Shown here piece after piece: positions 1 to 60,898 of a DNA stretch of 64,000 nucleotides. The DNA is from an uncultured bacterium. Its GTDB lineage: Bacteria; Fermentibacterota; Fermentibacteria; Fermentibacterales; JCC-6. The position numbers and the translations under genes were made by a program. The notes beneath the pieces are model-generated. The model was not told the origin of the DNA and searched no databases. It saw only the letters and a list, made by a program, of their open reading frames with translations. The stretch is taken from the NCBI GenBank assembly GCA_964426545.1, contig CAYRQP010000007.1, positions 36,534 through 100,533 on the forward strand, given 5' to 3'. Each line of letters starts with the position of its first letter. Positions within the stretch are counted from its first letter, which is position 1.

Positions 1-1237
1 CAAGAGCGAGTCCTGCTCCGGAAAGTCCCATGACGGGCATCAGAAGAATAAGCAGAGCAAAGGTCAGAACAAGTCCAAGTGCAGTGCAGATCGGGAACCA
101 GTAGGTTTTGCGTTTTAGCATAAGACCAATACTTGCATATCCCTGCAATCCAAAGACAATGATAGTCAGGCACATCCACGGGATAACAGGAATAGCGGAC
201 ATATAGGAAGGCTTGGCTATTATTGAAAGAACATCCCCGGAAAGAGCGACAATTCCGGAAGCAATGAAGCCGGAAAGCAGTAAATAGTATGTAATCAACT
301 TACTGTAGAATTCTCGGGCATTCGGATCCTTTTCTGCTTCGAACACTACGGCCGGCCTGATCTGTTTCATTGGCATTATGACTAGAGTCTGAATGACACG
401 GGCAAACCGGTCTGCAAGAGCGAAAATGCCCACAGCCGCCGGACCTGCAATTAACTTGATGATAATGCGAATTCCGGATCTTTCGATTAGAGTCAGTATA
501 TTCAGCGGTATGAACGGCAATCCGTATGAAATGATTTTTCTTACTTCGTTCAAATTAAAAACGGGTCGAAGCTCTTTTCTTATCATATGCAGGATTATGA
601 GAGATGTTAGCAACTTACCTGCCAGGCTTCCGTAGATTACTCCTGCAAAGCCTATGCGGCGGAAGGCAACAAGATAGATTGTAACTCCGAGAGTTACCAA
701 CAAACCAACTATATTTGTTATAGCAAATTTCCTTGAAAGCTGTTTTGCCCTAAAGACAGCCATTCCGACTGTTGTAACACTTTGAAGCGCCCCGGTGTAA
801 AGAACAAGACTGATAAGGAAGCCATTTTTAGCAGAACCGGTAAGCAGATCGGCCAGAATACCCGAAACCAGGTGGCCGGCAAGAAAAAGAGAGAAAGAGA
901 TAGATAGCGCAAGGTATAAGGCAGTGCTGACGACCATGGACCTGTCATCCTCATTGTCATAGTCATAATATGACCTGAAGAGCGAAGGTCCTATCATGGA
1001 TGAAGTAAGCATCGATATAGCAGGCTTTACGATGAGAACTAGGTTTAGTATCCCGTAATCGGCAACTGTAAGAAACCGTGTGTAGACAGGAAGCAGGAGG
1101 ATGCTAGCGCTTTGCTGCAGGACACCGCCTGCACCGAAAATTGCAGTGTGTTTTGCAGTGTTCTTGATTCTGCTGCCAAGACCCGGAAACTCTGTGTCTT
1201 CTGAAGGGTGTGTGGTTTTCCCGGAGTCTTTGGTCAT
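1..1237 (-). CDS. Wzx-like polysaccharide flippase (MOP superfamily membrane protein); partial, C-terminal portion lies beyond the window start
   Basis: Minus-strand frame is open from ATG at 1237-1235 to the window edge. It is not in the ORF track, presumably because it is truncated. N-terminus reads MTKDSGKTTHPSEDTEFPGLGSRIKNTAKHTAIFGAGGVLQQSASILLLPVYT. I translated hydrophobic helical stretches by hand at 118-2 (LKRKTYWFPICTALGLVLTFALLILLMPVMGLSGAGLAL) and 778-710 with no stops. Position at the head of a glycan locus supports the call. Confidence 0.55.
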   Translation of the reverse strand, partial: MTKDSGKTTHPSEDTEFPGLGSRIKNTAKHTAIFGAGGVLQQSASILLLPVYTRFLTVADYGILNLVLIVKPAISMLTSSMIGPSLFRSYYDYDNEDDRSMVVSTALYLALSISFSLFLAGHLVSGILADLLTGSAKNGFLISLVLYTGALQSVTTVGMAVFRAKQLSRKFAITNIVGLLVTLGVTIYLVAFRRIGFAGVIYGSLAGKLLTSLIILHMIRKELRPVFNLNEVRKIISYGLPFIPLNILTLIERSGIRIIIKLIAGPAAVGIFALADRFARVIQTLVIMPMKQIRPAVVFEAEKDPNAREFYSKLITYYLLLSGFIASGIVALSGDVLSIIAKPSYMSAIPVIPWMCLTIIVFGLQGYASIGLMLKRKTYWFPICTALGLVLTFALLILLMPVMGLSGAGLAL

Positions 1238-1451
1238 TTTATCCTTAACATCATGTAAGGCCGTATTCGGACTTTCCTGCAGGAGTAAATATACAACTTT
1301 CAGTCCGGCAGTTGTGTTCCTTCATGCGTGGGAATATGGTACGAAGCCCTGTATGATCAAAGTACAATACTTCTGTCAGAATGATGTTATATTTGTCTGT
1401 ATGTGTTTCAATGGAAACAGTATGAGCAAGTACATCAGACTGTGAAAATAT

Positions 1452-2177
1452 GTGGGTTACCATAATTCAAGGCAGGAAAAATTGAAGAGCTTCATAAAAA
1501 ATATTCCGTTGATTGGTTCGATTGTTACCCGACTGCGACGAATAACGAAGAAGAAATCGGTTCCAATAGACTTCTCCAATTCAGGTGAATACTGGGAGAA
1601 ACGGTATTCATCCGGAGACAATTCCGGAGCGGGGTCTTATTCGAAACTTGCCGAATTCAAGGCAGAAGTAGTTAATGAATTTGTATCAGAAAATAATGTC
1701 CTATCCGTGATTGACTTCGGCTGCGGAGACGGAAACCAGCTGATTTTATCCGAATATCCGAAATACGTAGGATTCGATGTAAGCGAAACAGCAGTTGTGC
1801 TATGCAGAAAGAAATTCAGATCAGACAATACAAAGCAGTTCAGAATGCTGAGCGAATATTCCGGGGAAACTGCAGAATTGACCCTGTCGATGGATATTAT
1901 ATTCCATCTCGTGGAAGATCCGGTATTCGAAGCACACATGACAATGCTGTTCGAAGCATCAACCCGATATGTCATCATTTACTCGAGCAACCGCAAATAT
2001 GATTCCATATCGGAAGGAGATCATGTCAGGCATAGAAAATTCACGGAATGGATTGACCGTAATGCTGAAAATTGGAAACTTCTGCAGCACATTCCCAACA
2101 GGTTTCCATATGAAGGTGATGACAGAAGCGGTTCATATTCCGATATTTTTGTCTATGAAAAATCCGCTGGGGAATAA
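1452..2177 (+). CDS. class I SAM-dependent methyltransferase
   Basis: Motif I VIDFGCGDGNQL follows EYWEKRY. GTG start in the track; the true start may be further downstream. Confidence 0.65.
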   Translation: MGYHNSRQEKLKSFIKNIPLIGSIVTRLRRITKKKSVPIDFSNSGEYWEKRYSSGDNSGAGSYSKLAEFKAEVVNEFVSENNVLSVIDFGCGDGNQLILSEYPKYVGFDVSETAVVLCRKKFRSDNTKQFRMLSEYSGETAELTLSMDIIFHLVEDPVFEAHMTMLFEASTRYVIIYSSNRKYDSISEGDHVRHRKFTEWIDRNAENWKLLQHIPNRFPYEGDDRSGSYSDIFVYEKSAGE

Positions 2178-2234
2178 CGGTAATTTTGCAGACCAATAAA
2201 TCAGTATGAACCGTAGACATAGTTTGGAGTTTTA

Positions 2235-3257
2235 GTGTCCACCGGAAAAGAGGACCCACCCAAATGGAAAAACAACGCCTGCTCACCGGTTCTGTTCTTT
2301 GTGGACGACTTGTCAAACAGATGGGTCGATGATAACAGAGACGGAATCATTCGGTCGGAGGGGGACTATGGTTTTCTGGGGAATGAACAGGATGGAGCAA
2401 TATCCTATCTGGAGAGGGAGATACTGTCTGAAAATCCTGCCGTAAAGGTTACATTCTTTGCTGTTGTGGATTCGATGTCCCCGCCTAATGAAACTGCCAG
2501 GGAGATATGTCATTCGTATCCAATGAACGAGAATGAGGAAAAAAGAGAATTCTTCCGGAACCTGCAAAGCAAACCCGAATATGAACTTGCATATCATGGA
2601 CTCAATCACGGTATGCCCGGCGAGACTACAGATGAATTTACTCACGAATGGGAAACTTTTCAATCAGCAGAAGAAGCAGTCGATAATATCGAGAAAGGAA
2701 TAAATATCTTCAAAGATACAGTTGGTACTGCTCCTTCCGGTGGAAAATACTGCGGCTATCGTTCGAATGATCTTTCGGATGAAAGTGTTGATGCGACAGG
2801 ATTCGACTGGTGGTGCAGGTTTTATAACAATGCTGCAGTCAATGGGTTTGCTGATGTCAATTACAGCGGAGAGGACAGCAATCCGACGACAGCATTCGAT
2901 ATTAAACATTTCGGGTTGAATGGTGTGATTGATATCCCTACTACGGTATCAGGCAGATTACTCTGCAATGTGCTGAAAAGACAGAATGGAATCAGGGGTT
3001 TCCTGAAGAGGTACTTTAAACCGCTTCTTCTATGGTGGAAACTTCGGGAGATAAGGTATCTGCTGAAACATAACCTGGTTATATCCATACAAGAACACAT
3101 AAGTCCGGTCAGGGGCGACGGGAAACGGCAGAGAATGAATATCCGTGATGACAGAGACAGCCTTCGAACTATTCTGAAATATTTGAAGAGAAAGAATGTC
3201 TGGTACTGCACAGGCTCTGAACTTGCCGAGTGGATAAACAAGAAGAGTAAACTATGA
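2235..3257 (+). CDS. polysaccharide deacetylase-like (CE4/DUF2334-like) protein
   Basis: LFFVDD...AYHGLNHG resembles the NodB/deacetylase-like metal-binding region. GTG start. Translationally coupled (ATGA overlap at 3254-3257) to the next gene. Confidence 0.45.
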   Translation: MSTGKEDPPKWKNNACSPVLFFVDDLSNRWVDDNRDGIIRSEGDYGFLGNEQDGAISYLEREILSENPAVKVTFFAVVDSMSPPNETAREICHSYPMNENEEKREFFRNLQSKPEYELAYHGLNHGMPGETTDEFTHEWETFQSAEEAVDNIEKGINIFKDTVGTAPSGGKYCGYRSNDLSDESVDATGFDWWCRFYNNAAVNGFADVNYSGEDSNPTTAFDIKHFGLNGVIDIPTTVSGRLLCNVLKRQNGIRGFLKRYFKPLLLWWKLREIRYLLKHNLVISIQEHISPVRGDGKRQRMNIRDDRDSLRTILKYLKRKNVWYCTGSELAEWINKKSKL

Positions 3258-4405
3258 GAGTAAGAGTCATCACATCACCTGAAGAATTCGACAGTGTGAA
3301 AAGCGAATGGATGCAATTCAAAAAAGAGACCGAAGATACAAATATCACATCTTCCTATATTTGGCAACGCACATGGTGGAAACATTTTAGCAGGCAGGAA
3401 ACACATAAGTTGGGATATGACAAGAAGTTGCGGATACTATTTATCTATGATGATACAGATTTTCTGCTTGCGATAATGCCGTTGTGCAGGGTCAGAAGAA
3501 GAATCAACAGACTGTTTCGATATACGGCAATCGAGTTCATTTCACAGCAGTGGGCAGGTAATTACATTGACTGCATATCAGCCGGGCTTACTCGCGAACA
3601 GGCGAAATGGCTGAGGAACTGGATGGAAGAACATCTGAATTATGACATACTCAATTTTCGCTACATCCCCGAAGACTCAAATTATTTTACTCCCGAGGGT
3701 GAAAAATACACTCAATATTCGGCATGCATGGAAATCGAAGGAACTGATTATGAAGGTGTTCGAAAGAAGTACTTTTCCAGAAACCTGAAACACAAACTGA
3801 ACAGAATTCACAATAAGATAGAGAGAAACAGCCTGAATATCGAATACAAAAGCAGAAGAGGAAGAGCCATACTCGAATATTTTGGAGAGATAGGAGAAGT
3901 TTCCATATCCAAGGAATATTCTGACAAGCAGTCCGTGTACCGGTCGAAGACAAAGACTGACTTCATTATGGATCTTATCTCGAACTTTGGAGAGAATTCC
4001 AAGTGCCTTTTCATGTACTTCGAAGGTGTTCTCTGTGCATATAACCTTGGGTTCTATCATGCCGGTAAGTACACCGCCATTGATGCCGCCTATAACCGGA
4101 ATATCCCGGAATTGAAGCAGTATTCTATCGGAAATCTGATTTATGACAAACTAATCGAGGATACAATTACATCCAAAACTCCGGAATTCAGTTTTGGAAC
4201 AGGTATCGATTCTTATAAACTGAGATTTACGAAACAGACCTGCCGGCTGTATTATCTCCTCGAGAAAAGAAACACTGTTAAGGGTAGGATTGCATTTGCA
4301 CGGCTCGATAGAGACCGGAGAATCGGAGAAAATGCCCTGCTTGAAGAACTGCATGAGAAACTTCCGGACCAGCACAGAGGTGCTAACAGCCGGAAAGGCA
4401 AATGA
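3254..4405 (+). CDS. FemAB/CelD-like GNAT acyltransferase (Acetyltransf_6-like)
   Basis: About 380 aa with the architecture typical of the BioF2-like/FemAB-like acetyltransferase family. It sits inside a glycan locus. Confidence 0.5.
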   Translation: MRVRVITSPEEFDSVKSEWMQFKKETEDTNITSSYIWQRTWWKHFSRQETHKLGYDKKLRILFIYDDTDFLLAIMPLCRVRRRINRLFRYTAIEFISQQWAGNYIDCISAGLTREQAKWLRNWMEEHLNYDILNFRYIPEDSNYFTPEGEKYTQYSACMEIEGTDYEGVRKKYFSRNLKHKLNRIHNKIERNSLNIEYKSRRGRAILEYFGEIGEVSISKEYSDKQSVYRSKTKTDFIMDLISNFGENSKCLFMYFEGVLCAYNLGFYHAGKYTAIDAAYNRNIPELKQYSIGNLIYDKLIEDTITSKTPEFSFGTGIDSYKLRFTKQTCRLYYLLEKRNTVKGRIAFARLDRDRRIGENALLEELHEKLPDQHRGANSRKGK

Positions 4406-4444
4406 TATGACCGCCCTTTTTATTATTCAGGAAACGATTCCCGA

Positions 4445-5539
4445 ATGAGATCAATGCCACAGCAAAATCCGCGTAAAGTCCTTCTTATTGGAACCGGCCC
4501 CCCGCCTCCGGGGGGAGTGACTGTTTATGTAAAGAGAATAACTGACAAACTCAGCAGTGAACCTTATTTCGATTTCATCGATACAAAATCAGCAGGGCGA
4601 CAACTAAAGGTGTTTTCATTGATTGCGTATGTAAGAAAGAATAATATAAAGGCTCTTCATCTGAACGGGATGATTAAGGGGAACGCTGCTTTCCGCTACC
4701 TCATGATAATGGCACTTTCCGGAGTCAGCATCATCATCACCTATCACAATGACAGGTTCGGGGAGATCTACAATAGAATGAACAGGTATGACCGGTTTTT
4801 CACACGGGCACTATACAGGAGAATTGACACTTTGATCTCCGCAAAGGAAGACGCTGAATACGTGTTTGTCGATAAAAGGAAGATAGCAAATGCAACTCCA
4901 TACATAGAACCGTCTGATGAAGAGATTAATGCAGAACTGCCTGAAATAGCATACGAAGCCAGAAAACAGCATAGAATACTGATTACGGCAAATGCTTCAA
5001 AGGTAGCTTTTCATAAAGGCACTGACCTTTACGGCATCGATATTTCAATAGAACTGACTAAGAGGCTGCTCGAAGCCGGTTATGAGAATATCGGATTTCT
5101 GTATGTAATCGGCCGCAGCAACGACGATGAGTACATTGCTGAAATGAGAGAACTGATAAGACAATATCAGATGGAAAAGAACTTCTGCATTCTCACAGAA
5201 GCGGTTCATTATGCAGGAATACTGAATCTGAGTGACATATTCATTCGGCCGACAAACACGGATTCTTTTGGCATTTCCGTTCAGGAAGCACTGTTTCTTG
5301 GCAAACCCGCGATTGTAAGTGATGTATGCTGCCGCTCGGAAGGGAGTACCCTGTTCGAGAACAGGAACATCGAAGACCTCTTTCAAAAAGTGAAATATAC
5401 AATAGACAATATCGATGGGGAAAGAGACAGGGTGTCCAAAGTGGTCTCTCGCGGGTGCATAGAAGATCTGTTGGATATATATGAAGCGACAGCGGGAATC
5501 TGTTTGCCTAATATCCGGAAAGATAATAGGGAAAAATAG
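4445..5539 (+). CDS. glycosyltransferase, GT-B fold (GT4-like)
   Basis: Gly/Pro-rich N-terminal GTGPPPPGG and a C-terminal GT-B region EALFLGKPAIVSDV. Confidence 0.55.
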   Translation: MRSMPQQNPRKVLLIGTGPPPPGGVTVYVKRITDKLSSEPYFDFIDTKSAGRQLKVFSLIAYVRKNNIKALHLNGMIKGNAAFRYLMIMALSGVSIIITYHNDRFGEIYNRMNRYDRFFTRALYRRIDTLISAKEDAEYVFVDKRKIANATPYIEPSDEEINAELPEIAYEARKQHRILITANASKVAFHKGTDLYGIDISIELTKRLLEAGYENIGFLYVIGRSNDDEYIAEMRELIRQYQMEKNFCILTEAVHYAGILNLSDIFIRPTNTDSFGISVQEALFLGKPAIVSDVCCRSEGSTLFENRNIEDLFQKVKYTIDNIDGERDRVSKVVSRGCIEDLLDIYEATAGICLPNIRKDNREK

Positions 5540-5540
5540 G

Positions 5541-6191
5541 ATGGGAAGAATAATCAACACTCTTTCGGAGGGGGGGATCCGCGGATTATTCCGAAAGGTC
5601 AGAGATTCGGTCTCCCTGCATGGAGTTATCTATGAATACAGGCTCGATGAGATGGAATCCGAGAAAGATACGGGAGTGCTTCCGGATGGATATACATTCA
5701 AACCGGCCGGAGAGGTGTCTCTGGAAGTCCTGAAGACTTTTTCGACATGTAACAGGGAACCTGGTCAGTTTGAACGCTCTATTCTCACAAATCTGAGTAC
5801 TCCCGACAGGGCAAAGGGGCTGTGTATTATGTTCGAAAACAGGGGAATTGTATCTCTTGGATGGGTATATTTCTTTCCGCCCGGTTCAAGCCGGGGAGAA
5901 AAGTATCCTTCGGGGCAAGATGTGTTTTATCCGATGGATGGATTTGTGGTGAAGGAACATAGAGGGAAAGGTCTGCATAGACAGTGTGTCAGGGAGAGAG
6001 TTCGTATTGCAGGACAAAATGGGAAAAAGACCGGATACAGTATTGTATATATTGACAATGTCCCTGCCCTTAAGGATAATGATAAACTCGGCAGGAGAAT
6101 AGGAAAAGTGTATAGAATAAAGTCAGCGGGGAAAACAGTTAACTTATATATTCCATCCAGATGGTATCTGTATTTCAGGAAACACATATAA
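5541..6191 (+). CDS. GNAT family N-acetyltransferase
   Basis: GNAT motif A-like GFVVKEHRGKGLHRQCVRERV. I chose the ATG at 5541, immediately after the upstream stop, rather than the overlapping track start at 5481. Confidence 0.5.
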   Translation: MGRIINTLSEGGIRGLFRKVRDSVSLHGVIYEYRLDEMESEKDTGVLPDGYTFKPAGEVSLEVLKTFSTCNREPGQFERSILTNLSTPDRAKGLCIMFENRGIVSLGWVYFFPPGSSRGEKYPSGQDVFYPMDGFVVKEHRGKGLHRQCVRERVRIAGQNGKKTGYSIVYIDNVPALKDNDKLGRRIGKVYRIKSAGKTVNLYIPSRWYLYFRKHI

Positions 6192-6206
6192 ATGAGGAGT
6201 GAGTAG

Positions 6207-7199
6207 ATGGAGCAGAAATGCCCGAAAATAGTCAGAATTACTGAATTGCTTCTGCGGGACGGTATCCAAAATGAAAAAAGGACGATATCTACAGATGCAA
6301 AACTGTTTTTTGCAAAGCAGTTTGCGAAAATCGGATTCGAAGAGATAGAGATAGGGTCATTTGCCCATCCCTATTACCTTCCACAATACAGGGACATAGA
6401 AGAATTGCTGAAGAGATTCAGCGAACTCGATTTGGAAAGAAAACCGAAGATTAAAGCTTTGACAACATCACTCAGGGCGGTCGAAAGGGCTGCAAAAACC
6501 AAAGAAAAAGGCTATCCGCCTGACAAGATTGCCTACATAATATCCTCAAGCGAAGATCATAACAGGGTCAATATCAGAAAAGACTGGGAATCCACTTTCG
6601 ATGAATTAGGAGAAATGATAAGAATATCCCGGGATTTTGAACTAGAAATAATAGTCGAATTGTGCACTGTATTCGGTTGTCCTGTGACAAAGAAGAAAGT
6701 TTCATTCGAAAATAGTTTCAATCTGATTGAAAGACTTCTGGATATGGGAATAACGGAAGTAATTCCCTGTGATACAACCGGCGAGGCCACACCGGAGATA
6801 GTGTACAATTACTATTCAGAATTGCGCAGGCGATTTCCCGTACAGAATGTTCATCATGCGCATTTTCACAATAACAGAGGCGTTGCGGCAGCAAATTTCT
6901 ATGCCGCGCTGCAGGCGGGTGTGGATCACATTGAAACAAGTCTTGGGGGCATTGGCGGGCAACCTGCGTTCATAGTTGATGGAATCCCGGGACTTGGTAC
7001 GGGTAAACGATATACATCGAGTGACTTCAACGGCAACACATCAACAGAAGACATGGTCGTGATGCTCGACGGAATGCAGATAGAAACAGGACTTGATATC
7101 GATTCTCTGCTCGAAACGGGAAATGTTCTTGAAGATGTACTCGACAGACAGCTGTACTCCTATTCGATCAAGACAGGGAGGTACTACCCTTCCGAATAA
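6207..7199 (+). CDS. DRE-TIM metallolyase superfamily protein (HMG-CoA lyase-like / pyruvate carboxyltransferase domain)
   Basis: N-terminal LLRDGIQ motif and metal-binding HAHFHNNRGVAAAN. At 330 aa there is no C-terminal regulatory domain. Confidence 0.6.
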   Translation: MEQKCPKIVRITELLLRDGIQNEKRTISTDAKLFFAKQFAKIGFEEIEIGSFAHPYYLPQYRDIEELLKRFSELDLERKPKIKALTTSLRAVERAAKTKEKGYPPDKIAYIISSSEDHNRVNIRKDWESTFDELGEMIRISRDFELEIIVELCTVFGCPVTKKKVSFENSFNLIERLLDMGITEVIPCDTTGEATPEIVYNYYSELRRRFPVQNVHHAHFHNNRGVAAANFYAALQAGVDHIETSLGGIGGQPAFIVDGIPGLGTGKRYTSSDFNGNTSTEDMVVMLDGMQIETGLDIDSLLETGNVLEDVLDRQLYSYSIKTGRYYPSE

Positions 7200-7204
7200 T
7201 AATA

Positions 7205-8431
7205 TTACTCCACAGTTATACTATTTAGAAGATTAAGGTACTTCAGAGCAAGGTTACTCCAACAGTAATCCTCCGCATTAAAAACGGAATCAACGATATT
7301 TCCGGAAAGCAATCGGAAAAGAGATTTCTCTATTTCATCCGGTTCATCGGCCGGAATACATTTCCCGCAGCCGGTTTCCTCTACGATATCATAAACTGCA
7401 GATTCCCGGGGGGATACTGCCAGTATGGGAACGCCGGACTGCAGATAATCGAAAAATTTGTATGGAATTGCATATGAATGCTGCTGTACAGAAGAGAGAT
7501 ACAGGACATCTGCACTTCCTATTTCCTGCTTTGCTCTGTCATAATCGAGCCATCCTAATTCGACAAGTTCTACATCCGGAGCAAGTTCAGTGAATTGCAT
7601 ATGTTCCGAACTCAGAAGATTCGGTCCAAGTACTTTCATAATCAGGGGCTTGTGCTGAACGGAATATTTCTGAAGTGCGGAAGCAATTGGATTAATAGAC
7701 CGGCCTCTATAAAATGAGCCGGCATAGAGTATTGTCTTAGTGTTGGCCAAAGGTGGTTTTGGTGCAGAGTGTTCAGGTAAGCCGGTAATACCGTTCGTAA
7801 TAGTACGCAAAGCTGAATGCGGTATGAAGTACCCGAATAAGTCCTGAAAAGAAATTTTCATGCGATCCGAACAAAAAACAGCTGCCGATGCCGTGCGAAG
7901 AATAAGTCTTTCCATCATTCCGGCCCCCGCCCTACCGGTCATAAGGGGGTAGGAAGTTCCCGTATTATTAGACCATGGGTCCCTGTAATCGAGAACAAGG
8001 GGCAGTCCGGTTATTTTTGCTGTAATTGCTGCCGAAACAAACCCGGAAAAGGGAGGACCTGATGCTATGATAACCTGAACGTCCCCTGAGTCTATAATTT
8101 CTATAGCTTTTATGAGAGAAGGAATTATCCAGCCTTCCCTGGAATCTATCATTCTAAAAAATCTGTACCAGATTCCACCCGGAATGTTAAACATGCGTGT
8201 ATTCCATCTTTTGGTAAGACTGTGCATCATGAAAGAAACTCTACTGACATTACCCGGAGCTTTAATTGAAAAATCCGGATTAGTGATATACCTATTTTTA
8301 GGTGTAATTATGTGGACTGTGTGACCTCTGCTCAAGAACTCCCGGGTAAGAAACATCCACCGTTTTGCCCCGACTGCACCCGTTGGTGGATAATGATAAC
8401 TGAAAAGCAGAATTTTCAAATGACATCCCAA
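7205..8431 (-). CDS. glycosyltransferase family 4
   Basis: N-terminal KILLFSYHYPPTGAVGAKR, a GT-B C-terminal domain and an EX7E-like region. Confidence 0.65.
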   Translation of the reverse strand: MGCHLKILLFSYHYPPTGAVGAKRWMFLTREFLSRGHTVHIITPKNRYITNPDFSIKAPGNVSRVSFMMHSLTKRWNTRMFNIPGGIWYRFFRMIDSREGWIIPSLIKAIEIIDSGDVQVIIASGPPFSGFVSAAITAKITGLPLVLDYRDPWSNNTGTSYPLMTGRAGAGMMERLILRTASAAVFCSDRMKISFQDLFGYFIPHSALRTITNGITGLPEHSAPKPPLANTKTILYAGSFYRGRSINPIASALQKYSVQHKPLIMKVLGPNLLSSEHMQFTELAPDVELVELGWLDYDRAKQEIGSADVLYLSSVQQHSYAIPYKFFDYLQSGVPILAVSPRESAVYDIVEETGCGKCIPADEPDEIEKSLFRLLSGNIVDSVFNAEDYCWSNLALKYLNLLNSITVE

Positions 8432-8465
8432 TCGCTAGTGTATCTGCACAAAAATACCTGCGAGA

Positions 8466-9581
8466 TTATAAGTCAGCGGAGTATATTCCGACAAGTTTAC
8501 CTATATACTCAGCAGGAGAGGTAAGCTCTCTCACGAATTCTTGTGCATTGTTTCCAACTTTCTTCCGAATCTCCGGAGAATTTGCTACCATCAACAAACG
8601 CCTGCCGTCATCAGTGCAATCCGTCATATCGAGGAAAAATCCCGTATATCCTTCTTTTATCAGTTCCGGAATTCCACCCGTCTTCGTACAGACAGGAACG
8701 ACTCCATGATGCATGGCTTCAGCAAGTGCAACCGGAAAACCCTCTACTTCCGATGTCATAACAAAGATATCAGAAACCTTGTAGTAGTCATCGAGTTCGA
8801 TCCTTGCCAGTTCGAAGTTTACGCATTTTTCTATTTCAAGGTGCTTTGCCAGTATAATGGAATCAGATAATTCGGGCCCGTCCCCCACAACTATCAGGTG
8901 AGAAGGCGGAGTCTCAGGGAGATTCACATAAGTTCCGAATGCTTTGAGCAGCCGTGTTATGTTCTTTACTTTGCGCAGTGCCCCGACAAAGAGAAATACA
9001 ACTGCCTCGGCAGGTATGCCAAGGGTTGCCCTGATCTTCTTTCTTTCCTCACTTCCTGTAAAATCAACTGACGGGACGGGGTTGAAGAGAACCTCCGATT
9101 GCCTGTTGCTGCAAATATTCCCATTCAGAAAGAGATCTTCGATATAACTGCAGACCATGATTCTGCGGTTAATGAAGCCCGAAAGAAACCTGTCGATAGT
9201 CTGCCGGACAGGAGTCGTCCAGGGAGAACCACTATGTTCAGTCGATATGATAAGGGGGACTCCGCAAATAACTCCGCAGATTGTACCTATCTGTTTTGGT
9301 AGCCAGAGATGAAGATGAAGAACATCCGGATTTATTTTGATAATAAGAGTACACAAACGGATAATTGTCCTGAGGTAATAACGCCTTCTGTGTGCAATCG
9401 GGGTGCAGATAGTCACACCTTCATGGATACGCGGCAGCATAGCCGTTCCCTCTTCCAGAGGGACAACACAGGTCTTCCAGTCCGGCAGTTTCTGCATTTC
9501 ATTGCATATATTGGCAATTACTGCCTGGGCTCCCCCAATCCCGAGATTGCTTATGACATGCAGAACCGTTTTCTTTTTCAT
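8466..9581 (-). CDS. glycosyltransferase family 4
   Basis: MKKKTVLHVISNLGIGGAQ N-terminus and C-terminal EGFPVALAEAMHHGVPVV. The track ORF extends to 9623; I prefer the internal ATG at 9581. Confidence 0.65.
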   Translation of the reverse strand: MKKKTVLHVISNLGIGGAQAVIANICNEMQKLPDWKTCVVPLEEGTAMLPRIHEGVTICTPIAHRRRYYLRTIIRLCTLIIKINPDVLHLHLWLPKQIGTICGVICGVPLIISTEHSGSPWTTPVRQTIDRFLSGFINRRIMVCSYIEDLFLNGNICSNRQSEVLFNPVPSVDFTGSEERKKIRATLGIPAEAVVFLFVGALRKVKNITRLLKAFGTYVNLPETPPSHLIVVGDGPELSDSIILAKHLEIEKCVNFELARIELDDYYKVSDIFVMTSEVEGFPVALAEAMHHGVVPVCTKTGGIPELIKEGYTGFFLDMTDCTDDGRRLLMVANSPEIRKKVGNNAQEFVRELTSPAEYIGKLVGIYSADL

Positions 9582-9823
9582 TGCCAATTGCGAATTATCC
9601 TTTGCTGCAGAGAAAAAATGCATATTGCCGAAAGTGCGGCAATTCTGTTTGATACAGGTACATTACTATATATAGCAGAAATCCGCCACTCCGCTGCAAA
9701 GAGAGATTTGCTATATTTGCAGGGTGACAGTTTTCGTTACAGTGCTGTTCTTCAAAAGTTAAACTACTGTTATATAGATAATTCGACAAAGGCTTTGTAA
9801 TGATAATGAAAGGACAAAGACAG

Positions 9824-10969
9824 ATGCGGAAAATCCGTGTTGGTTTCGTTATATCAACATTGAACAGGGGCGGGGCTGAAGGAAAACTGGTTGCTGTTGC
9901 AAACGGTCTCGACAGGGAAAGGTATGAAGCTGGTGTATATATCCTGAAGACAGGACCTTTGAAAGAACTACTCACAGTTCCGTACCGGGATAATCTGATT
10001 CCCAATAAATACAGCATAGCAGGATTTGCGGAACTCGTCCGGTCTTTCAAGAAGGACAAACTGGATATTGTCTGGCTGGTGGGGACCGGTGATACAGGTT
10101 TTTTTGGAAGGATTGCCGCGAAACTGGCGGGAGTTTCACATGTTATAGTTAGCCTTCATGCGACGGACAGGCCGGGAAAACCCACAATAGACACAACTAA
10201 CCGGTACTTGAATGAGATAAACTGCCTGACGGACAGGTTTGTTGCTGTTGCAGAAACTCACCGGACTCACCTGATACAAACAGAACACATAGATCCTGCT
10301 AAAATAATCTATATTCACAACGGAGTGGACGTTTCAGTATTTCATCCAACGATACCGGGCAAAGACAAAACAACAGAAGACGATTTTGGAGTTCCGGAGA
10401 ACGTTCCGGTTATTGGAATACTGGCACGATTCAAACCCGAAAAAAGACATGATGTCTTTCTAAAGGCGGGTAGAATCCTTCTGCAGACATATCCGGATCT
10501 TAAATTGATGATAGTGGGGGATGGGCTGAATAGGGAATCTGTTGAAAAGATGACAGATGATCTTGGTCTCAGGGACAATGTGATTTTTACAGGCGGACTC
10601 GATGATGTTCTTCCTGCAATTCACAGGATGACAGTATCTGTACTTTGTTCGGATACAGAGGCATTCCCGAACGCCGTGCTTGAATCTATGGCTGCCGGCG
10701 TACCTGTAGTAGCAACTGATGTGGGCTCTGTACGTGAAGCTGTAAAGAACAGGGAAAATGGAATGCTCATACAGAAAGGAAGTCCGGAACATGTGGCTGA
10801 GGCCGTTGCTCTGCTTCTTGAAAGTGATACTCTGCGGAAGTCCGTGATACATGAAGGACTGAAAACGGTATCGGACCGATTCTCACTAAGGCAGATGATT
10901 CGCAGGCGCGAAGAACTATTCGAAGAACTGCTTAACGGAGACAAGAGAAGATTGGATTCCTTTGAATAA
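9824..10969 (+). CDS. glycosyltransferase family 4
   Basis: MRKIRVGFVISTLNRGGAEG N-terminus and C-terminal EAFPNAVLESMAAGVPVVATDVG. Start chosen at the ATG with an aaagga RBS-like sequence. Confidence 0.65.
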   Translation: MRKIRVGFVISTLNRGGAEGKLVAVANGLDRERYEAGVYILKTGPLKELLTVPYRDNLIPNKYSIAGFAELVRSFKKDKLDIVWLVGTGDTGFFGRIAAKLAGVSHVIVSLHATDRPGKPTIDTTNRYLNEINCLTDRFVAVAETHRTHLIQTEHIDPAKIIYIHNGVDVSVFHPTIPGKDKTTEDDFGVPENVPVIGILARFKPEKRHDVFLKAGRILLQTYPDLKLMIVGDGLNRESVEKMTDDLGLRDNVIFTGGLDDVLPAIHRMTVSVLCSDTEAFPNAVLESMAAGVPVVATDVGSVREAVKNRENGMLIQKGSPEHVAEAVALLLESDTLRKSVIHEGLKTVSDRFSLRQMIRRREELFEELLNGDKRRLDSFE

Positions 10970-11918
10970 CATATGGAAAGGAAAACGGGTGCTTATAACA
11001 GGCGGAGCCGGTTTTATCGGGTTCCACCTGTTCCGTAAACTGATTGGAAAGGGTTCTCTTGTCGATATCATCGATAAGAGAATTCCGGCGTGGCCTGTAG
11101 ATGAGTTTGACGCTGATTACACTTTGTATTTCGCCATCGACATAATCGGTGAGGATTTTACAGCATATCTGCGAAAAACCGACTATGACTATATATTCCA
11201 TTTGGCGGGAAGTGCCTCTGTTCAACTCTCGGTGAAAAGACCATTTACTGATTTCGAAACCAATTTGAGGGGTACGCTTAATCTGCTCGAGACACTGCGG
11301 ACGGTAGATTATCTGCCTAAATTGATTTATCTGTCCTCCGCGGCAGTATACGGAAATCCTGTCAGGTCACCGATAAGTGAAGAAGATGCAACCGTGCCAA
11401 TTTCACCATATGGTATTAGTAAACTTGCAGCAGAACGGTATCTTCATGTTTACAGCGAGATTCATGGGCTGCCGGCTGTGTCAGTCAGACCTTTTTCAGT
11501 ATATGGGCCGGGGCAGGGAAAGCAGGTAGTTTTCGACATAATCAGGAAAATCGAAAACAATCCCAAAAAACTGGAGTTATTTGGAACAGGTATGGAAGCC
11601 CGGGATTTCATCTACATTTCCGATATTGTGGATGCTCTTCTAATAGTCGCTGAAAAGAGCAACATGACGGGTGAAGTCTATAATCTTGCATCCGGAAAAT
11701 CGGTAGAGATATCTGAAATAGCGGAAGAAATTTGTCGGATTACAGGTGTTTCTCCCCAAATGGAGTACAAGGGATCTGTACGTCCGGGAGTTCCACTCGT
11801 CTGGGAAGCGAATATTGGTAAACTCAAAGCACTGGGATTCCGGCCGGCTATAGAAATGCATGAAGGACTGAGAAAGACCATAGAGTGGTTCATCGAAACG
11901 AAGACAGACAGAAGATGA
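10962..11918 (+). CDS. NAD-dependent epimerase/dehydratase (SDR, UDP-sugar epimerase-like)
   Basis: Rossmann motif GGAGFIGFHL and catalytic YGISKLAAE (YxxxK). Confidence 0.75.
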   Translation: MNNIWKGKRVLITGGAGFIGFHLFRKLIGKGSLVDIIDKRIPAWPVDEFDADYTLYFAIDIIGEDFTAYLRKTDYDYIFHLAGSASVQLSVKRPFTDFETNLRGTLNLLETLRTVDYLPKLIYLSSAAVYGNPVRSPISEEDATVPISPYGISKLAAERYLHVYSEIHGLPAVSVRPFSVYGPGQGKQVVFDIIRKIENNPKKLELFGTGMEARDFIYISDIVDALLIVAEKSNMTGEVYNLASGKSVEISEIAEEICRITGVSPQMEYKGSVRPGVPLVWEANIGKLKALGFRPAIEMHEGLRKTIEWFIETKTDRR

Positions 11919-13021
11919 AAGTTCTCCTGGTAGGTCCCGTTCATAAATTCGGCGGAGTAACACGTTATGTAAAGGACCTTCTTGCGTCTTCTCCGGACTT
12001 TATCCCTTTCAATACCGGAAGACCCGAGAAGAAGAAAATTCGTGCAGGGACAGGATATGTCGAAGCATTCAACACAGATACTTCAAGGGTAGTTAAAGGC
12101 ATATTCGTGACTCTATGTAATTTTCTGAGATTTCCATTAGTTCTCTTAAATAGCGGTGCCGGAATTGTCCACATATGCGGAGTCAGTTTTTTTCCTTTCT
12201 GGGAAAATACCTATTACATGGCAGTGTCACGTATTTTAGATAAAAAAGTTACGTTGCATTATCTTGGAGCATTCGACCAGTTTTATGAACCGGCAGGCAA
12301 ATTTCACAAATATCTCATTCGTTCTGTTTTGCAGATTCCTGACAGAATTATGCTCCTTTCAGAAAAAGTGAAGAGATTATCAGCGGAATTCATTCCGGAA
12401 GACAGACTGAGTGTATTGCCCAGCTCGGTTGATACCGATAAATTCAATGCTCCTGACAGGCTTTTTCCGGCACCTCCTGCGAAAATCAGAATCTTGTTTG
12501 TAGGCGGACTCGATCCATTTAGAAAAGGTATCTATGATCTGCTTGAATCTGTCAGTATGGTCACAGAGAAATACCCTCATGTGAGATTAGTGCTTACGGG
12601 TGGTGGTAGTTTCGAAGAAATTGAAAAGAAGTGGGAAAAAATGGGTTTGGATGGATGTATAGAGTTCATCGGCTGGGTCGCTGATGAAAAACTGCCCGAA
12701 CTCTACGCGTCCTGTGATGTTCTGGCACTTCCTTCGTATAATGAGGGCCTTCCATATGTGATTATCGAAGCACTTTCATCCGGATTACCAATGATAGGCA
12801 GTAATGTGGGCGGAATACCGGAAGTCATAAGTGACGGAGAGAACGGTTACATAATAACACCCGGTGACGTAGAAATGCTGACTGAGAGACTGCTTGAACT
12901 TCTTAAAGACGCTGATATCAGAAAAAGAATGAGCGCGAACAATAGGAAAAGGGCAGTTCGATTTTATTCTATTGACCATGTAATGAAAGAATTGCAGAGA
13001 AATTTCTCAGAGATAGTATAA
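11915..13021 (+). CDS. glycosyltransferase family 4
   Basis: MKVLLVGPVHKFGGVTRY and C-terminal EGLPYVIIEALSSGLPMIGSNVGGIPEV. ATGA overlap with the upstream stop. Confidence 0.65.
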   Translation: MKVLLVGPVHKFGGVTRYVKDLLASSPDFIPFNTGRPEKKKIRAGTGYVEAFNTDTSRVVKGIFVTLCNFLRFPLVLLNSGAGIVHICGVSFFPFWENTYYMAVSRILDKKVTLHYLGAFDQFYEPAGKFHKYLIRSVLQIPDRIMLLSEKVKRLSAEFIPEDRLSVLPSSVDTDKFNAPDRLFPAPPAKIRILFVGGLDPFRKGIYDLLESVSMVTEKYPHVRLVLTGGGSFEEIEKKWEKMGLDGCIEFIGWVADEKLPELYASCDVLALPSYNEGLPYVIIEALSSGLPMIGSNVGGIPEVISDGENGYIITPGDVEMLTERLLELLKDADIRKRMSANNRKRAVRFYSIDHVMKELQRNFSEIV

Positions 13022-13060
13022 ACTGCAGACTTTCAGTTTTCTGAAAGTGGGGAGATGAAT

Positions 13061-14467
13061 ATGAGTAGCCCGGACAGATTCTACTCAGTTTACAAACATC
13101 TGCCGGTTTTTCTTCAAAATGCGATAGTGAGTATCAAAAGCGGTAGACGCTGGAAGCATGAAAACAGCAGACAGTTTCAATCTATTGTGGAAGAGCTGCT
13201 CAGAATTCAGTATGCATCGAGCGAAGAAATTCTCGAATACAGAAAAAACAAACTGGGTGCAGTTCTTAAAGCTGCGGCAAAAACAGAATATTACAGAAGA
13301 GAACTTCCCGAGGATGAGATAATAGAGAAAGAACCATTTGCTGTATTAGCGGATATTCCTGTGCTGGAACGTGAAGAGGTCAGAAACAACTTCAGAAAGT
13401 TCATCAACCCGCTGTACACAGACAAAATGATGAAACATGGAACAAGCGGGACAACAGGTACTCCTCTGCAGGTTATGTGGACAGAAGAGAGCATGGATAT
13501 GGAAAGAGCACTCATCTGGAGACAGAGAAGAGTCACAGGACTTTCTTTTGGAGAAGCCTGGAGGGGTATGCTCGGCGGTCATAAGATAGTACCGCTTAGT
13601 GTAACCGCTGCTCCTTTCTGGAGAACAAACAGGAAAGCAAAACAGGTATATTTTTCTACATTCCACATAAGCCCGGACGCAGCGGGGGACTACCGCGAAG
13701 GACTCGATAAATATGATATCGAATATCTCGAAGGTTATCCATCTGTTTTATATGCTCTGGCTCTTGCTCTTGATTCCGCAGATATCAGGTATAGACTCAA
13801 GGGAATCTATTATGGAGCCGAACCGCTCAGGGAATTCCAGAGAGAATTAATTGAAAAAGTATTTGAAACCTATGTCTGGGATTATTACGGATTGACTGAA
13901 AGGGTAGCCTCGGCAAGTGAATATGAATGCCGGAACGGACTTCATGAGAACTGGGAAAACTGCTTTCCGGAAGTGGTGGATAAAAAAGGTTGCCTTCTCG
14001 ATGACGGGCAATATGGAGAACTCGCAGGGACTTCTTTTTCAAATTTGGGGTTCCCGCTTCTCAGGTATAGAACAGGGGATATGACGCGGATCATTCCGGG
14101 AAAATGTACATGCCGGCGGGATTCGAGGAGAATAGCACCTATCGATACCAAACGGGAAGACCTTCTTATTATGCCGGACGGAAGTTATCTGTCAGCTTCC
14201 AACATGACCTATCCGTTTAAGGAAGTAGGACATATAAAGTTATCACAGATATATCAGGGACAGAGGAATCTCATAGAAGTCAGGGTCGTACCTGACAGTG
14301 ATTACAGAGAAGAGGATGGAATTGCTCTTGCCGGGAAACTTAAAAAGCTGCTTCCCGCTGAAGTAAGCGTAAAGATAGAACTTGTCGATGATATACCTAA
14401 AACAGCCTCAGGCAAATATGCGTTCTGTATATGCGCGATTAAAGAACTTCCCCCAGAAGAAGATTAG
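13061..14467 (+). CDS. CapK-like adenylate-forming enzyme (phenylacetate-CoA ligase / coenzyme F390 synthetase family)
   Basis: AMP-binding P-loop-like TSGTTGTP and the overall PaaK-like layout. Start chosen at the second ATG, which has a GGGGAG RBS. Confidence 0.6.
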   Translation: MSSPDRFYSVYKHLPVFLQNAIVSIKSGRRWKHENSRQFQSIVEELLRIQYASSEEILEYRKNKLGAVLKAAAKTEYYRRELPEDEIIEKEPFAVLADIPVLEREEVRNNFRKFINPLYTDKMMKHGTSGTTGTPLQVMWTEESMDMERALIWRQRRVTGLSFGEAWRGMLGGHKIVPLSVTAAPFWRTNRKAKQVYFSTFHISPDAAGDYREGLDKYDIEYLEGYPSVLYALALALDSADIRYRLKGIYYGAEPLREFQRELIEKVFETYVWDYYGLTERVASASEYECRNGLHENWENCFPEVVDKKGCLLDDGQYGELAGTSFSNLGFPLLRYRTGDMTRIIPGKCTCRRDSRRIAPIDTKREDLLIMPDGSYLSASNMTYPFKEVGHIKLSQIYQGQRNLIEVRVVPDSDYREEDGIALAGKLKKLLPAEVSVKIELVDDIPKTASGKYAFCICAIKELPPEED

Positions 14468-16683: not shown

Positions 16684-16686
16684 AGT

Positions 16687-20809: not shown

Positions 20810-20915
20810 CATAAGCACCTACCTAAATATCCCCAATAGTACGGTTGACAAGCATATATAATGTGTCTATGTAATAAGTAAGTGTGCTATTGTGATGTAC
20901 CATGTCGGAGGAAAA

Positions 20916-31100: not shown

Positions 31101-31135
31101 TTCATTCCTTTCACTTGAATAAAGACCAATTTCCT

Positions 31136-60873: not shown

Positions 60874-60898
60874 ACCAGCATTACTGCCGGAGGGGAAG

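Follow-up and report, generated by a model that had tools for sequence, protein, structure and literature searches.

A lyase-bearing tailoring cassette in a modular Wzx/Wzy-type surface-glycan locus of an uncultured Fermentibacteria bacterium

The HMGL-like family of DRE-TIM metallolyases has no other known link to sugar decoration, which raises the question of what one of its members does within the surface-glycan locus that lies at the start of the 64,000-nucleotide stretch of DNA analyzed here (the window; Table 1). The initial annotation had described an atypical set of tailoring genes in a glycan locus, and this is supported by profile searches and by comparison with relatives. The genes make up a modular surface-glycan locus of the Wzx/Wzy type, and the bacterium falls in the FCB group, with Candidatus Aegiribacteria and Fermentibacter as its closest named relatives. 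Which of its modules, then, does the lyase belong to, and what could it contribute there?

Table 1. Features of the locus, in window coordinates, with the matches on which each assignment is based.
Feature	Coordinates	Strand	Evidence
Wzx-type flippase, partial	1237..1	-	Polysacc_synt 72.9 bits, Polysacc_synt_3 68.8 bits
Class I SAM methyltransferase	1452..2177	+	Methyltransf_31/25/23/12, E 1e-5 to 8e-4, all below cut-off
DUF2334/CE4-like putative de-N-acetylase	2235..3257	+	DUF2334 22.8 bits (cut-off 26)
FemAB/CelD-like Acetyltransf_6 acyl- or aminoacyl-transferase	3254..4405	+	PF13480 46.4 bits (cut-off 22)
GT4 glycosyltransferase GT4a	4445..5539	+	Glyco_trans_1_4 39 bits, Glycos_transf_1 36.7 bits
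Divergent GNAT-fold acyltransferase, 216 aa	5541..6191	+	Remote homology and AF2 model
Gln-type HMGL-like DRE-TIM metallolyase, 330 aa	6207..7199	+	PF00682 124.8 bits (cut-off 29)
GT4 glycosyltransferase GT4b	7205..8431	-	Glyco_transf_4 39 bits
GT4 glycosyltransferase GT4c	8466..9623	-	Glycos_transf_1 113 bits
GT4 glycosyltransferase GT4d	9800..10969	+	Glycos_transf_1 134.8 bits
SDR NAD-dependent sugar epimerase/dehydratase	10962..11918	+	Epimerase 179 bits
GT4 glycosyltransferase GT4e	11915..13021	+	Glycos_transf_1 134 bits
CapK/PaaK-like adenylate-forming ligase	13055..14467	+	AMP-binding 32.3 bits; precomputed CapK_C match
DUF354 protein (GT-B/epimerase-like)	14439..15464	-	PF04007 139.4 bits
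412-aa protein without family assignment	15445..16683	-	Weak GH88, pectate-lyase and squalene-cyclase repeat matches
727-aa two-domain oxidoreductase (MDR/ADH_zinc_N + GFO_IDH_MocA)	16687..18870	-	Profile search

Layout of the locus and its conserved right half

Profile searches recovered most of the gene content first listed for the locus (Wzx, methyltransferase, Acetyltransf_6, GT4, SDR, HMGL-like and CapK/PaaK-like proteins), whereas the DUF2334/CE4-like deacetylase is a weak match that scores under its Pfam cut-off. The arrangement differs from the one originally proposed. Five GT4 genes rather than six were counted in 1–14467, and two of these (GT4b and GT4c) lie on the minus strand, as does Wzx; the locus must therefore comprise at least four transcription units and not a single plus-strand operon. 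Nor does it end at 14467, since its right edge lies at ~18870, and to the left it continues past the window start, where genes for Wzy, for a sulfotransferase and for a heparinase II/III-like protein also belong to it. The Wzx gene itself runs off the window start with ~412 of its 514 residues inside, and the gene is complete, at 514 aa, in L001 and L002. The ATGA overlaps at 3254 (FemAB-like start, DUF2334-like stop) and 11915 (GT4e start, SDR stop) are real in the sequence, and the motifs LRDGIQ (residue 16) and HAHFHNNRG (217) of the lyase and TSGTTGTP (130) of the CapK-like ligase were found where they had been placed. The reported 8-nt overlap at 10962, however, needs a TTG start, and one gene caller begins this gene 27 nt downstream. 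The start of GT4b is also uncertain (383 or 329 aa depending on the gene caller); its homologue in L003 is 49% identical and occupies the matching position relative to the lyase.

The right half of the locus (9800–18870) is conserved among relatives and includes a fixed four-gene block consisting of the CapK-like ligase, the DUF354 protein, the 412-aa protein, which is possibly an alpha/alpha toroid, and the 727-aa oxidoreductase. The block is found in unchanged order in L019, L020 and L021 at 49–75% identity (49–59%, 52–60%, 49–66% and 54–75%, respectively), with the ligase in an equivalent position. L020 additionally carries homologues of GT4d (74%), which is the first gene of this semi-conserved half, of the SDR epimerase (71%), which scores below every equivalog cut-off among the NCBIfam models, and of GT4e (67%). 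The oxidoreductase gene forms the right edge of the locus, and past it the same unrelated CitMHS, LTD and Lactamase_B genes follow in the window and in L020 alike. The DNA upstream is wholly different, with Asn synthases and PGA_cap in L019 and DUF362 in L021, and no lyase, GNAT, FemAB-like or DUF2334-like gene was found in L019, L020 or L021 within the fetched ±10 kb.

This distribution bears on whether the lyase and the ligase act in one pathway, in which the HMGL-like enzyme would form a carboxylic acid through Claisen or aldol chemistry, after which the CapK-like enzyme would adenylate this acid or turn it into its CoA ester, and either the FemAB-like enzyme or the GNAT would pass it to the sugar. 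Such a pathway would fit the presence of all these genes in one locus and the similarity of the CapK-like protein, which is greatest to PaaK acid-CoA ligases (E 1.7e-27 against PaaK structures); moreover, because the wider subfamily of the lyase pairs with CoA-transferases, some CoA-activating partner would be expected. However, the CapK gene is inherited with a separate block that occupies the same chromosomal site in L019–L021 without the cassette (±10 kb), which argues against the functional link to the lyase that had been proposed, and ~50 CapK relatives at 47–62% identity occur among the best 120 matches as compared with nine other lyase-clade clusters. Genetic work on the CapK/PaaK-like VpsH of V. 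cholerae points to a different role as well, as VpsH does not activate a free acid but is required for glycine amidation of a uronic acid, the L-GulNAcA of VPS, in the lipid-linked repeat unit (PMC13463779). A single pathway is thus unlikely. VpsH resembles the window enzyme in being a PaaK-like adenylate-forming enzyme that is encoded in a Wzx/Wzy glycan locus and serves in tailoring, not in backbone assembly; the two are compared by description alone, and the window locus is without recognized uronic-acid pathway genes. By this analogy, the CapK-like enzyme would most likely couple an amino acid or amine to the growing lipid-linked glycan after adenylating one of its carboxylates. Its substrate is a guess, since neither a uronic-acid-forming dehydrogenase nor an initiating phosphoglycosyltransferase was seen within 1–19 kb.

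A Gln-type relative of HMG-CoA lyase

What kind of enzyme is the lyase itself? Its best PDB matches are HMG-CoA lyases, among them B. subtilis YngG (1ydo) at E 2.8e-40, and it has in common with HMG-CoA lyase (EC 4.1.3.4; human HMGCL) the full-length HMGL-like TIM barrel, the Arg-Asp pair, the Glu, the HxH motif and the Asn. In contrast to that enzyme, it carries Q252 in place of the catalytic Cys in the GLGGCP loop, has ~17 extra residues directly after it, and scores only 187 bits on the HMG-CoA lyase model PRK05692 (cut-off 246); its scores on synthase models are no higher than 73 bits. The lyase falls in a monophyletic glycan clade of ten members, which occur only in glycan contexts where their flanks are readable, and R17, D18, E48, H219, H221, N277 and Q252 are invariant across this clade. 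Judged from these residues, it is an intact, constrained protein. HMG-CoA lyase belongs to leucine and ketone-body metabolism, whereas this protein is found in the context of glycan assembly. Its sub-cut-off scores and its own clade place it apart from housekeeping HMG-CoA lyase and isopropylmalate synthase, with which a tight grouping would have counted against the initial annotation, and by its sequence the protein is no housekeeping HMG-CoA lyase.

The glycan clade is nested inside a Gln-type 'pyruvate carboxyltransferase' HMGL-like subfamily from Desulfobacterota, Bacteroidota and uncultured lineages, for which no characterized member was found, and its sister is a group of ~400-aa proteins. 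The GGIGGQPA loop and the insertion are common to this subfamily and the lyase, and all of the 120 best matches carry the Gln. Subfamily members beyond the glycan clade are, however, only 38–46% identical to the lyase, and in most of them Leu stands at the position of the metal-ligand Asn of the glycan clade, with HADHDG at the position of its PCDTTG. Genes for family I or family III CoA-transferases adjoin these wider members (as in L004, L005 and L006), which points to acyl-CoA substrates, and the window locus is without such genes.

An alternative hypothesis is that the enzyme acts on sugars directly. Pyruvate aldolases, 4-hydroxy-2-oxovalerate aldolase among them, also belong to the DRE-TIM superfamily, and the HMGL-like protein might be a metal-dependent aldolase that joins a two- or three-carbon unit, e.g. 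from pyruvate, to a sugar with a keto or aldehydo group to give a branched or higher sugar. The weak and partial match of the lyase to the 4-hydroxy-2-oxovalerate aldolase model (43 bits) is in keeping with this, as are the loss of the catalytic Cys of HMG-CoA lyases, the enlarged loop beside the active site, and the variability of position 24 within the glycan clade (K, N, S, C or R), a position that we equate with Lys48, a CoA contact in human HMG-CoA lyase. However, over its full length the protein most resembles HMG-CoA lyases, the Gln and the insertion are also present in subfamily members paired with CoA-transferases, and the conserved neighbor of the lyase is a GNAT, typically an acyl-CoA user. 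For these reasons, a direct sugar aldolase is very unlikely.

A cassette that travels with the lyase

The left half of the locus (1–9623) is a serotype-like variable region with a rare, co-inherited tailoring cassette. The methyltransferase, its first gene, weakly matches TIGR03587, a pseudaminic-acid-associated methylase; in L016 a 239-aa Methyltransf_23 gene adjoins the DUF2334-like and FemAB-like homologues, and a tblastn comparison of the window methyltransferase with L016 gave no match at E 1e-5. The DUF2334-like protein has a PuuE-like match at E 0.004 and shares FFxDD and HGxxH motifs with its 52% identical L016 homologue. The FemAB/CelD-like acyltransferase assignment is confirmed by an Acetyltransf_6 score well above cut-off, and homologues of this gene adjoin the lyase in L014, L016 and L023/L024. 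The GNAT gene starts 1 nt past the GT4a stop and lies directly upstream of the lyase. It has no Pfam or NCBIfam match, and the call made for it is instead supported by remote matches to Acetyltransf_1 GNATs and by an AF2 model of moderate confidence (pLDDT 64.6), whose top 50 PDB matches in Foldseek are all GNATs. When 1.84 billion representatives were searched with its profile, only three matched at E<1e-30.

The lyase is present at 66–76% identity in seven lineages, and the order of the genes around it is shuffled. In the window the order is methyltransferase, DUF2334, FemAB, GT, GNAT, HMGL, as compared with GNAT, HMGL, GT4b in L003; FemAB, Wzx, GNAT, HMGL in L014; GNAT, HMGL, heparinase II/III in L018; GT, GT, GNAT, HMGL in L022; and DUF2334, GNAT, HMGL, FemAB in L023. 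In L016, the FemAB, DUF2334 and methyltransferase genes are divergent from HMGL. The GNAT and HMGL genes are thus adjacent in six of the seven lineages, with FemAB-like and DUF2334-like genes next to them on every contig that extends far enough; most related contigs are short (1.4–6.4 kb), so the absence of a cassette gene from one of them has little meaning. The DUF2334-like, FemAB-like, divergent GNAT and HMGL-like genes travel together in these seven lineages, and the local organization is conserved.

Could the lyase nevertheless be a passenger, an ordinary acyl-CoA lyase of the HMG-CoA or citramalyl-CoA type that entered a recombination-prone locus and has no glycan role? It retains all metal-binding and Arg/Asp/Glu residues, and its nearest non-glycan relatives (41–46% identity) lie beside CoA-transferases in catabolic-looking contexts. 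However, the lyase lies among glycan genes in all seven lineages with readable flanks, in six lineages it comes straight after the same rare GNAT despite the shuffled order, and the window locus holds no CoA-transferase or other catabolic partner. Moreover, the family of the partner GNAT is tiny, which suggests that the GNAT and the lyase evolved as a pair. A passenger is therefore highly improbable.

Precedents and a model for the cassette

Part of this toolkit has been seen before. Adjacent deacetylase and FemAB pairs, together with CapK, are a recurring set in PEP-CTERM/environmental EPS loci (PMC3684757), so this part of the toolkit is not unusual, and in the Caulobacter holdfast the FemX-like acyltransferase HfsK occurs with the deacetylase HfsH (PMC5362036). 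The likeness lies in a translationally coupled, adjacent pair of a putative deacetylase and a FemX-like transferase of the double-GNAT family, with CapK in the cluster. The window deacetylase is, however, DUF2334-like rather than Polysacc_deac_1, no exosortase was seen, and the window proteins have no match to PEP-CTERM-specific NCBIfam models or to Pfam FemAB. Relative to these sets, the GNAT-lyase pair is an addition of the window locus. The borrowing of acyl-CoA metabolism for glycan N-acyl tailoring is itself familiar from the ant operon for anthrose in B. anthracis and the tetronate genes of V. cholerae O1. The idea in common, likened here by description, is that an acyl-CoA enzyme encoded in the locus provides a dedicated N-acyltransferase with a short hydroxyacyl donor of an unusual kind, although the enzymes enlisted there are an enoyl-CoA hydratase, or else ACP, ligase and reductase proteins, rather than a DRE-TIM lyase.

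We hypothesize that the cassette works by deacetylation followed by reacylation. The DUF2334-like enzyme would strip the N-acetyl group from an amino sugar, and the freed amine would be re-acylated by the FemAB-like enzyme, with an amino acid or acyl group, and/or by the GNAT, from an acyl-CoA. The methyltransferase may add an O- or N-methyl group. Enzymes of the HMGL family reversibly interconvert a 3-hydroxy-3-substituted acyl-CoA with acetyl-CoA and a ketone or 2-oxo acid, and the lyase could in this way supply the adjacent GNAT with a short hydroxyacyl-CoA, which it would either make or trim. HMG-CoA-lyase-type reactions normally favor cleavage, and for this reason the transferase would have to draw the reaction toward condensation in a biosynthetic role; that a Claisen or aldol reaction builds the substituent is a plausible hypothesis. 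We regard it as an even call that this modular locus carries a deacetylate-then-reacylate cassette in which the lyase would make or trim the acyl-CoA donor.

Composition and extent of the glycan locus

The locus was mapped from the ORF listing and six-frame translation, followed by Pfam and NCBIfam scans. The motifs quoted in the initial annotation and its two ATGA overlaps, at 3254 and 11915, were recovered where it had placed them. Its picture of a single-strand operon with six GT4 genes had to be revised, since the flippase and two GT4 genes lie on the minus strand and five GT4 genes were found. The 8-nt overlap that it described at 10962 exists if a TTG start is used, and depends on that start. 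At 14439-14467 the CapK-like and DUF354 genes, which converge, share 29 nt at their 3' ends.

Features of the glycan locus, with positions in the window and selected scores
Feature	Position	Strand	Remark
Wzx-type flippase	1237 down to 1	-	runs off window start
Class I methyltransferase	1452-2177	+	weak matches only
DUF2334-like protein	2235-3257	+	22.8 bits vs cut-off 26
Acetyltransf_6 protein (FemAB/CelD-like)	3254-4405	+	46.4 bits vs cut-off 22
GT4 glycosyltransferase	4445-5539	+	
216-aa ORF	5541-6191	+	no family match
HMGL-like protein	6207-7199	+	124.8 bits
GT4	7205-8431	-	
GT4	8466-9623	-	
GT4	9800-10969	+	
SDR epimerase	10962-11918	+	
GT4	11915-13021	+	
CapK/PaaK-like ligase	13055-14467	+	
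DUF354	14439-15464	-	
412-aa protein	15445-16683	-	no clear family
ADH_zinc_N + GFO_IDH_MocA fusion, 727 aa	16687-18870	-	

The locus is also larger than the interval 1-14467 first assigned to it. On the right it extends to ~18870, beyond which a CitMHS transporter and unrelated genes are encountered. On the left, two related contigs that carry the identical genes and reach further upstream (L001 and L002) encode, at their positions 1-3512 and directly before the window start, a Wzy polymerase (Wzy_C), a Sulfotransfer_3 sulfotransferase and a heparinase II/III-like protein. The assembly genes are probably of Wzx/Wzy type, with Wzx and the five GT4 genes in the window and Wzy_C just upstream. 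Because the locus continues upstream with the polymerase, sulfotransferase and heparinase-like genes, the data suggest a polymer that is sulfated and possibly contains uronic acid. No uronic-acid pathway gene was recognised in the locus, and no initiating phosphoglycosyltransferase was recognised in 1-19 kb. A heparinase II/III-like gene is also found downstream of the lyase in another related locus (L018). A PEP-CTERM/exosortase EPS system was considered as the identity of the locus and rejected, as the specific models give no match. Promoter and terminator scans performed at chance level (37 versus 32.7 expected, and 20 versus 17.9 expected, respectively).

Beyond the locus the window is ordinary chromosome, encoding LeuRS, UvrA, DnaK, GrpE, DnaJ, MetK and MetRS; a tRNA scan of the whole window was negative. 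Two proteins (21525-22706 and 56072-57589), one with a metallo-beta-lactamase fold and one peptidase-C25-like, carry type IX secretion C-terminal sorting domains (Por_Secre_tail), as would suit an organism of the FCB group. At 20892-21509 lies the gene of a lamin-tail-domain protein. A DUF5343 protein adjoins a 526-aa protein with a tRNA_anti-like OB-fold match only (29520-31855, minus strand), and the sole recognised domain of a 1134-aa protein (34415-37819) is a C-terminal GGDEF diguanylate cyclase, the N-terminal part of ~800 residues having no family match. The gene of a B12-binding radical SAM enzyme (44856-46280, minus strand) separates the dnaK-grpE-dnaJ operon from metK. Several long ORFs of 406-522 aa, at 24186-25703 (minus), 59323-62467 (plus) and 62678-63898 (minus), gave no Pfam match at E<=1e-4. 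Among housekeeping genes, at a distance from the main glycan locus, are another SDR sugar epimerase/dehydratase and an additional GT4 (28419-29399 and 54032-55237).

A Gln-type branch of HMGL-like proteins

The lyase matches PF00682 over residues 9-307 with 124.8 bits, and R17, D18 and E48, characteristic of the DRE-TIM metallolyases and their HMGL-like TIM-barrel domain, are conserved. Its closest solved structures are HMG-CoA lyases (B. subtilis 1ydo, E 2.8e-40; human 2cw6, E 2.3e-31). The metal ligands and catalytic arginine (D18, H219, H221, N277 and R17) align with those of the PDB lyases and are invariant in the clade to which the protein belongs, and E48 is likewise kept in the alignments. 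On these sequence features the protein is placed in the DRE-TIM/HMGL-like superfamily.

Is the protein, then, a bona fide HMG-CoA lyase (EC 4.1.3.4)? This identity was rejected on two features. The first is the score against the curated HMG-CoA lyase model (NCBIfam PRK05692), which at 187.2 bits does not reach the cut-off of 246. The second is the replacement of the catalytically important cysteine of the GLGGCP motif (human C266) by glutamine, Q252 in the sequence GIGGQP, which is invariant in the clade and is followed by ~17 extra residues relative to the PDB HMG-CoA lyases. Position 24, which aligns with Lys48 of the human enzyme, a putative CoA contact, varies within the clade. Isopropylmalate, homocitrate and citramalate synthases, for which membership was judged by the family cut-off score together with a C-terminal regulatory/LeuA dimer domain, were also rejected, as the protein reaches no more than 73.5 bits where 413-748 are required and is only 330 aa long. 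Tight clustering with housekeeping orthologues, which the initial annotation had named among the grounds for refuting its reading, was looked for and not seen: the protein falls in a clade of its own, below the HMG-CoA lyase cut-off and far from the synthase models.

Glutamine occupies the cysteine position in all of the best 120 database matches, so the lyase is a member of a large Gln-type branch, whose source labels read 'pyruvate carboxyltransferase' or 'HMG-CoA lyase'. No characterised member of the branch was found, and the literature yielded no characterised citramalyl-CoA-lyase-type relative of this subfamily. Ten protein clusters (P0001-P0010, 65-76% identity) form the glycan-locus clade, which is monophyletic within the branch. 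Its sister is a group of ~400-aa proteins (43-46% identity) that adjoin family III CoA-transferase genes. The bulk of the branch shows 37-41% identity to the lyase and differs from the clade at several pocket positions, including Leu for N277; one of its members adjoins a family I CoA-transferase pair. In a metagenome contig (L010, 3195-5243) the gene of a canonical Cys-type HMG-CoA lyase stands in tandem with a Gln-type paralogue, which implies that the two types differ in function. The clade is rare: its profile recovered only 2 loci from the GTDB species genomes and 5 from the JGI metagenomes, almost all of them distant, the window's source genome being absent from the species representatives scanned.

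Co-inheritance of the lyase with glycan-tailoring genes

Flanks were readable for seven lineages of the clade (66-76% identity), and neighbours were compared by tblastn, most comparison contigs being short. The lyase lies among glycan genes in all seven, and a homologue of the 216-aa ORF lies directly upstream of it in six. The window, L014, L016 and L023/L024 have FemAB-like homologues, and the window, L016 and L023 have DUF2334-like ones. Gene order in L023 is DUF2334, GNAT, lyase, FemAB. In L016 it is FemAB, DUF2334, methyltransferase, with the methyltransferase gene adjoining the other two and the set divergent from the lyase. Across seven lineages the lyase and its private GNAT are inherited together with genes for a FemAB-like transferase and a deacetylase-like protein, and such retention of members under a shuffled order is what a functional module would be expected to show. 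Full-text searches of a limited literature returned no account of a glycan tailoring cassette that has an HMGL-like DRE-TIM enzyme among its conserved members, a negative that falls short of proof, and no relevant precedent was found there for linking HMG-CoA lyase or HMGL-like proteins to O-antigen, capsule or glycosyltransferases.

For the 216-aa ORF, Pfam and NCBIfam gave no match and the PDB no convincing one by sequence. Its family is tiny, with four clusters in 5.8 billion sequences and only three sequences below E 1e-30 when 1.84 billion representatives were searched exhaustively with a profile. Weaker profile matches are Acetyltransf_1 GNATs, and HRGKGLH at residue 140 resembles the R/Q-x-x-G-x-G/A acyl-CoA loop. 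A four-sequence AlphaFold model of moderate quality (pLDDT 64.6) retrieved GNATs as all top 50 Foldseek PDB matches (TM ~0.5), including glucosamine N-acetyltransferase and WecD. By combining the remote profile matches, the loop motif and the moderate model, we accept the ORF as a divergent GNAT. Two of its remote relatives (P0147 and P0148, ~660 aa) are GNATs fused to the C-terminus of a Wzx-type flippase (Polysacc_synt + GNAT).

The FemAB-like protein matches Acetyltransf_6 (PF13480; CelD/BioF2/FemX-like GNAT clan) over residues 225-322. Membership of the FemAB aminoacyl-tRNA transferases was rejected, as neither Pfam FemAB (PF02388) nor any NCBIfam model at E<=0.01, the PEP-CTERM FemAB models included, gives a match; no PDB structure matched it either, whether by sequence or by profile. 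The DUF2334-like protein carries FFVDD and HGLNH, both kept in the L016 homologue, and its family score lies below the cut-off; its single-sequence structure model (pLDDT 33) was unusable for fold comparison. The two genes are translationally coupled. The pair resembles those of PEP-CTERM EPS clusters, where polysaccharide-deacetylase and FemAB-related genes are adjacent and CapK is also present (PMC3684757), and that of Caulobacter, where the FemX-like HfsK acts alongside the deacetylase HfsH (PMC5362036).

The CapK-like ligase belongs elsewhere in the locus. It shows a PF00501 AMP-binding match of 32.3 bits, a precomputed PF27533 CapK_C match, the T-S-G-T-T-G-x-P motif at residue 130 and similarity to the PaaK structure 4r1l (E 1.7e-27), features that place it among CapK/PaaK-like proteins. 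Identity with phenylacetate-CoA ligase PaaK was rejected, the scores being 91.6 bits versus 646 (TIGR02155) and 111 versus 700 (NF041878). Its best 120 matches include ~50 relatives that are 47-62% identical to it, and some of these bear the names Candidatus Aegiribacteria or Fermentibacter. The block of CapK, DUF354, 412-aa protein and 727-aa oxidoreductase retains its arrangement in three long contigs (L019, L020 and L021; 49-75% identity), and L020 additionally carries the three genes that precede the ligase (GT4, SDR, GT4) and the same downstream neighbours as the window. The DNA to the left of these shared genes is wholly different from the window in all three, and the lyase, GNAT, FemAB-like and DUF2334-like genes are absent from them within the fetched ±10 kb. 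Since the block is kept while the DNA further left differs, the locus resembles serotype loci in joining a conserved to a hypervariable side; CapK lies on the former and the lyase cassette on the latter.

In V. cholerae, the glycine amide that L-GulNAcA bears in the lipid-linked VPS disaccharide requires the PaaK-like VpsH (PMC13463779). By analogy, this precedent would better explain the CapK-like ligase, which probably works with its conserved neighbours and not with the lyase. Among these neighbours, the 412-aa protein gave weak squalene-cyclase repeat matches only in a PDB search; it may form an alpha/alpha toroid, and VpsJ, for which a C5 epimerase role is proposed in V. cholerae, might be a counterpart. 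Literature searches for DUF354 returned unrelated word matches only.

Candidate chemistry and significance of the cassette

From the family assignments and the co-inheritance of the cassette, both observed here, we infer a chemistry in which the DUF2334-like and FemAB-like proteins would remove an N-acetyl group and then re-acylate or aminoacylate the sugar, as is suggested by the fit of the coupled pair to the PEP-CTERM and Caulobacter pattern. The GNAT would use a CoA thioester as its acyl donor. CoA-transferases are neighbours of the wider lyase subfamily, and the lyase may make or trim that acyl-CoA through the reversible reaction of its family, in which a 3-hydroxy-3-substituted acyl-CoA is interconverted with acetyl-CoA and a carbonyl compound. 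Two points weaken this scheme: the equilibria of lyases favour cleavage, and the putative CoA-contact position 24 varies in the clade. One hypothesis, which we consider rather unlikely, is that the lyase clade and its private GNAT were recruited for biosynthetic C-C bond formation, giving a branched 3-hydroxyacyl-CoA that the GNAT installs on the glycan. By this hypothesis acetyl-CoA would be joined to a ketone or 2-oxo acid to yield an acyl-CoA of the 3-hydroxy-3-methylbutyryl, citramalyl or HMG type, and the acceptor would be a sugar amine, or an amino acid set by the FemAB-like enzyme, after DUF2334-type de-N-acetylation. If true, glycans would acquire hydroxyacyl or N-acyl-aminoacyl decorations by a route not described before, and the Gln-type HMGL-like subfamily would gain its first function.

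The Wzx/Wzy glycan locus, GT4 set, SDR, CapK-like ligase, and deacetylase and FemAB-like pair are all of known kinds, and odd enzymes are common in variable glycan loci; the cassette itself is rare, coherent and testable. Surface-glycan decorations govern recognition by phages and by the immune system, as well as the matrix's physical properties, and to our knowledge the enzymes behind unusual N-acyl groups are mostly unknown. Separation of the CapK-like ligase from the cassette, and its link to the conserved four-gene block, alters the choice of genes to be tested as a set. With the organism uncultured, practical impact will be modest until biochemistry is done. The cassette is a concrete, clonable gene set in which to seek a new acyl decoration, and it offers a way to a first function for the large, uncharacterised Gln-type branch of HMGL-like proteins.
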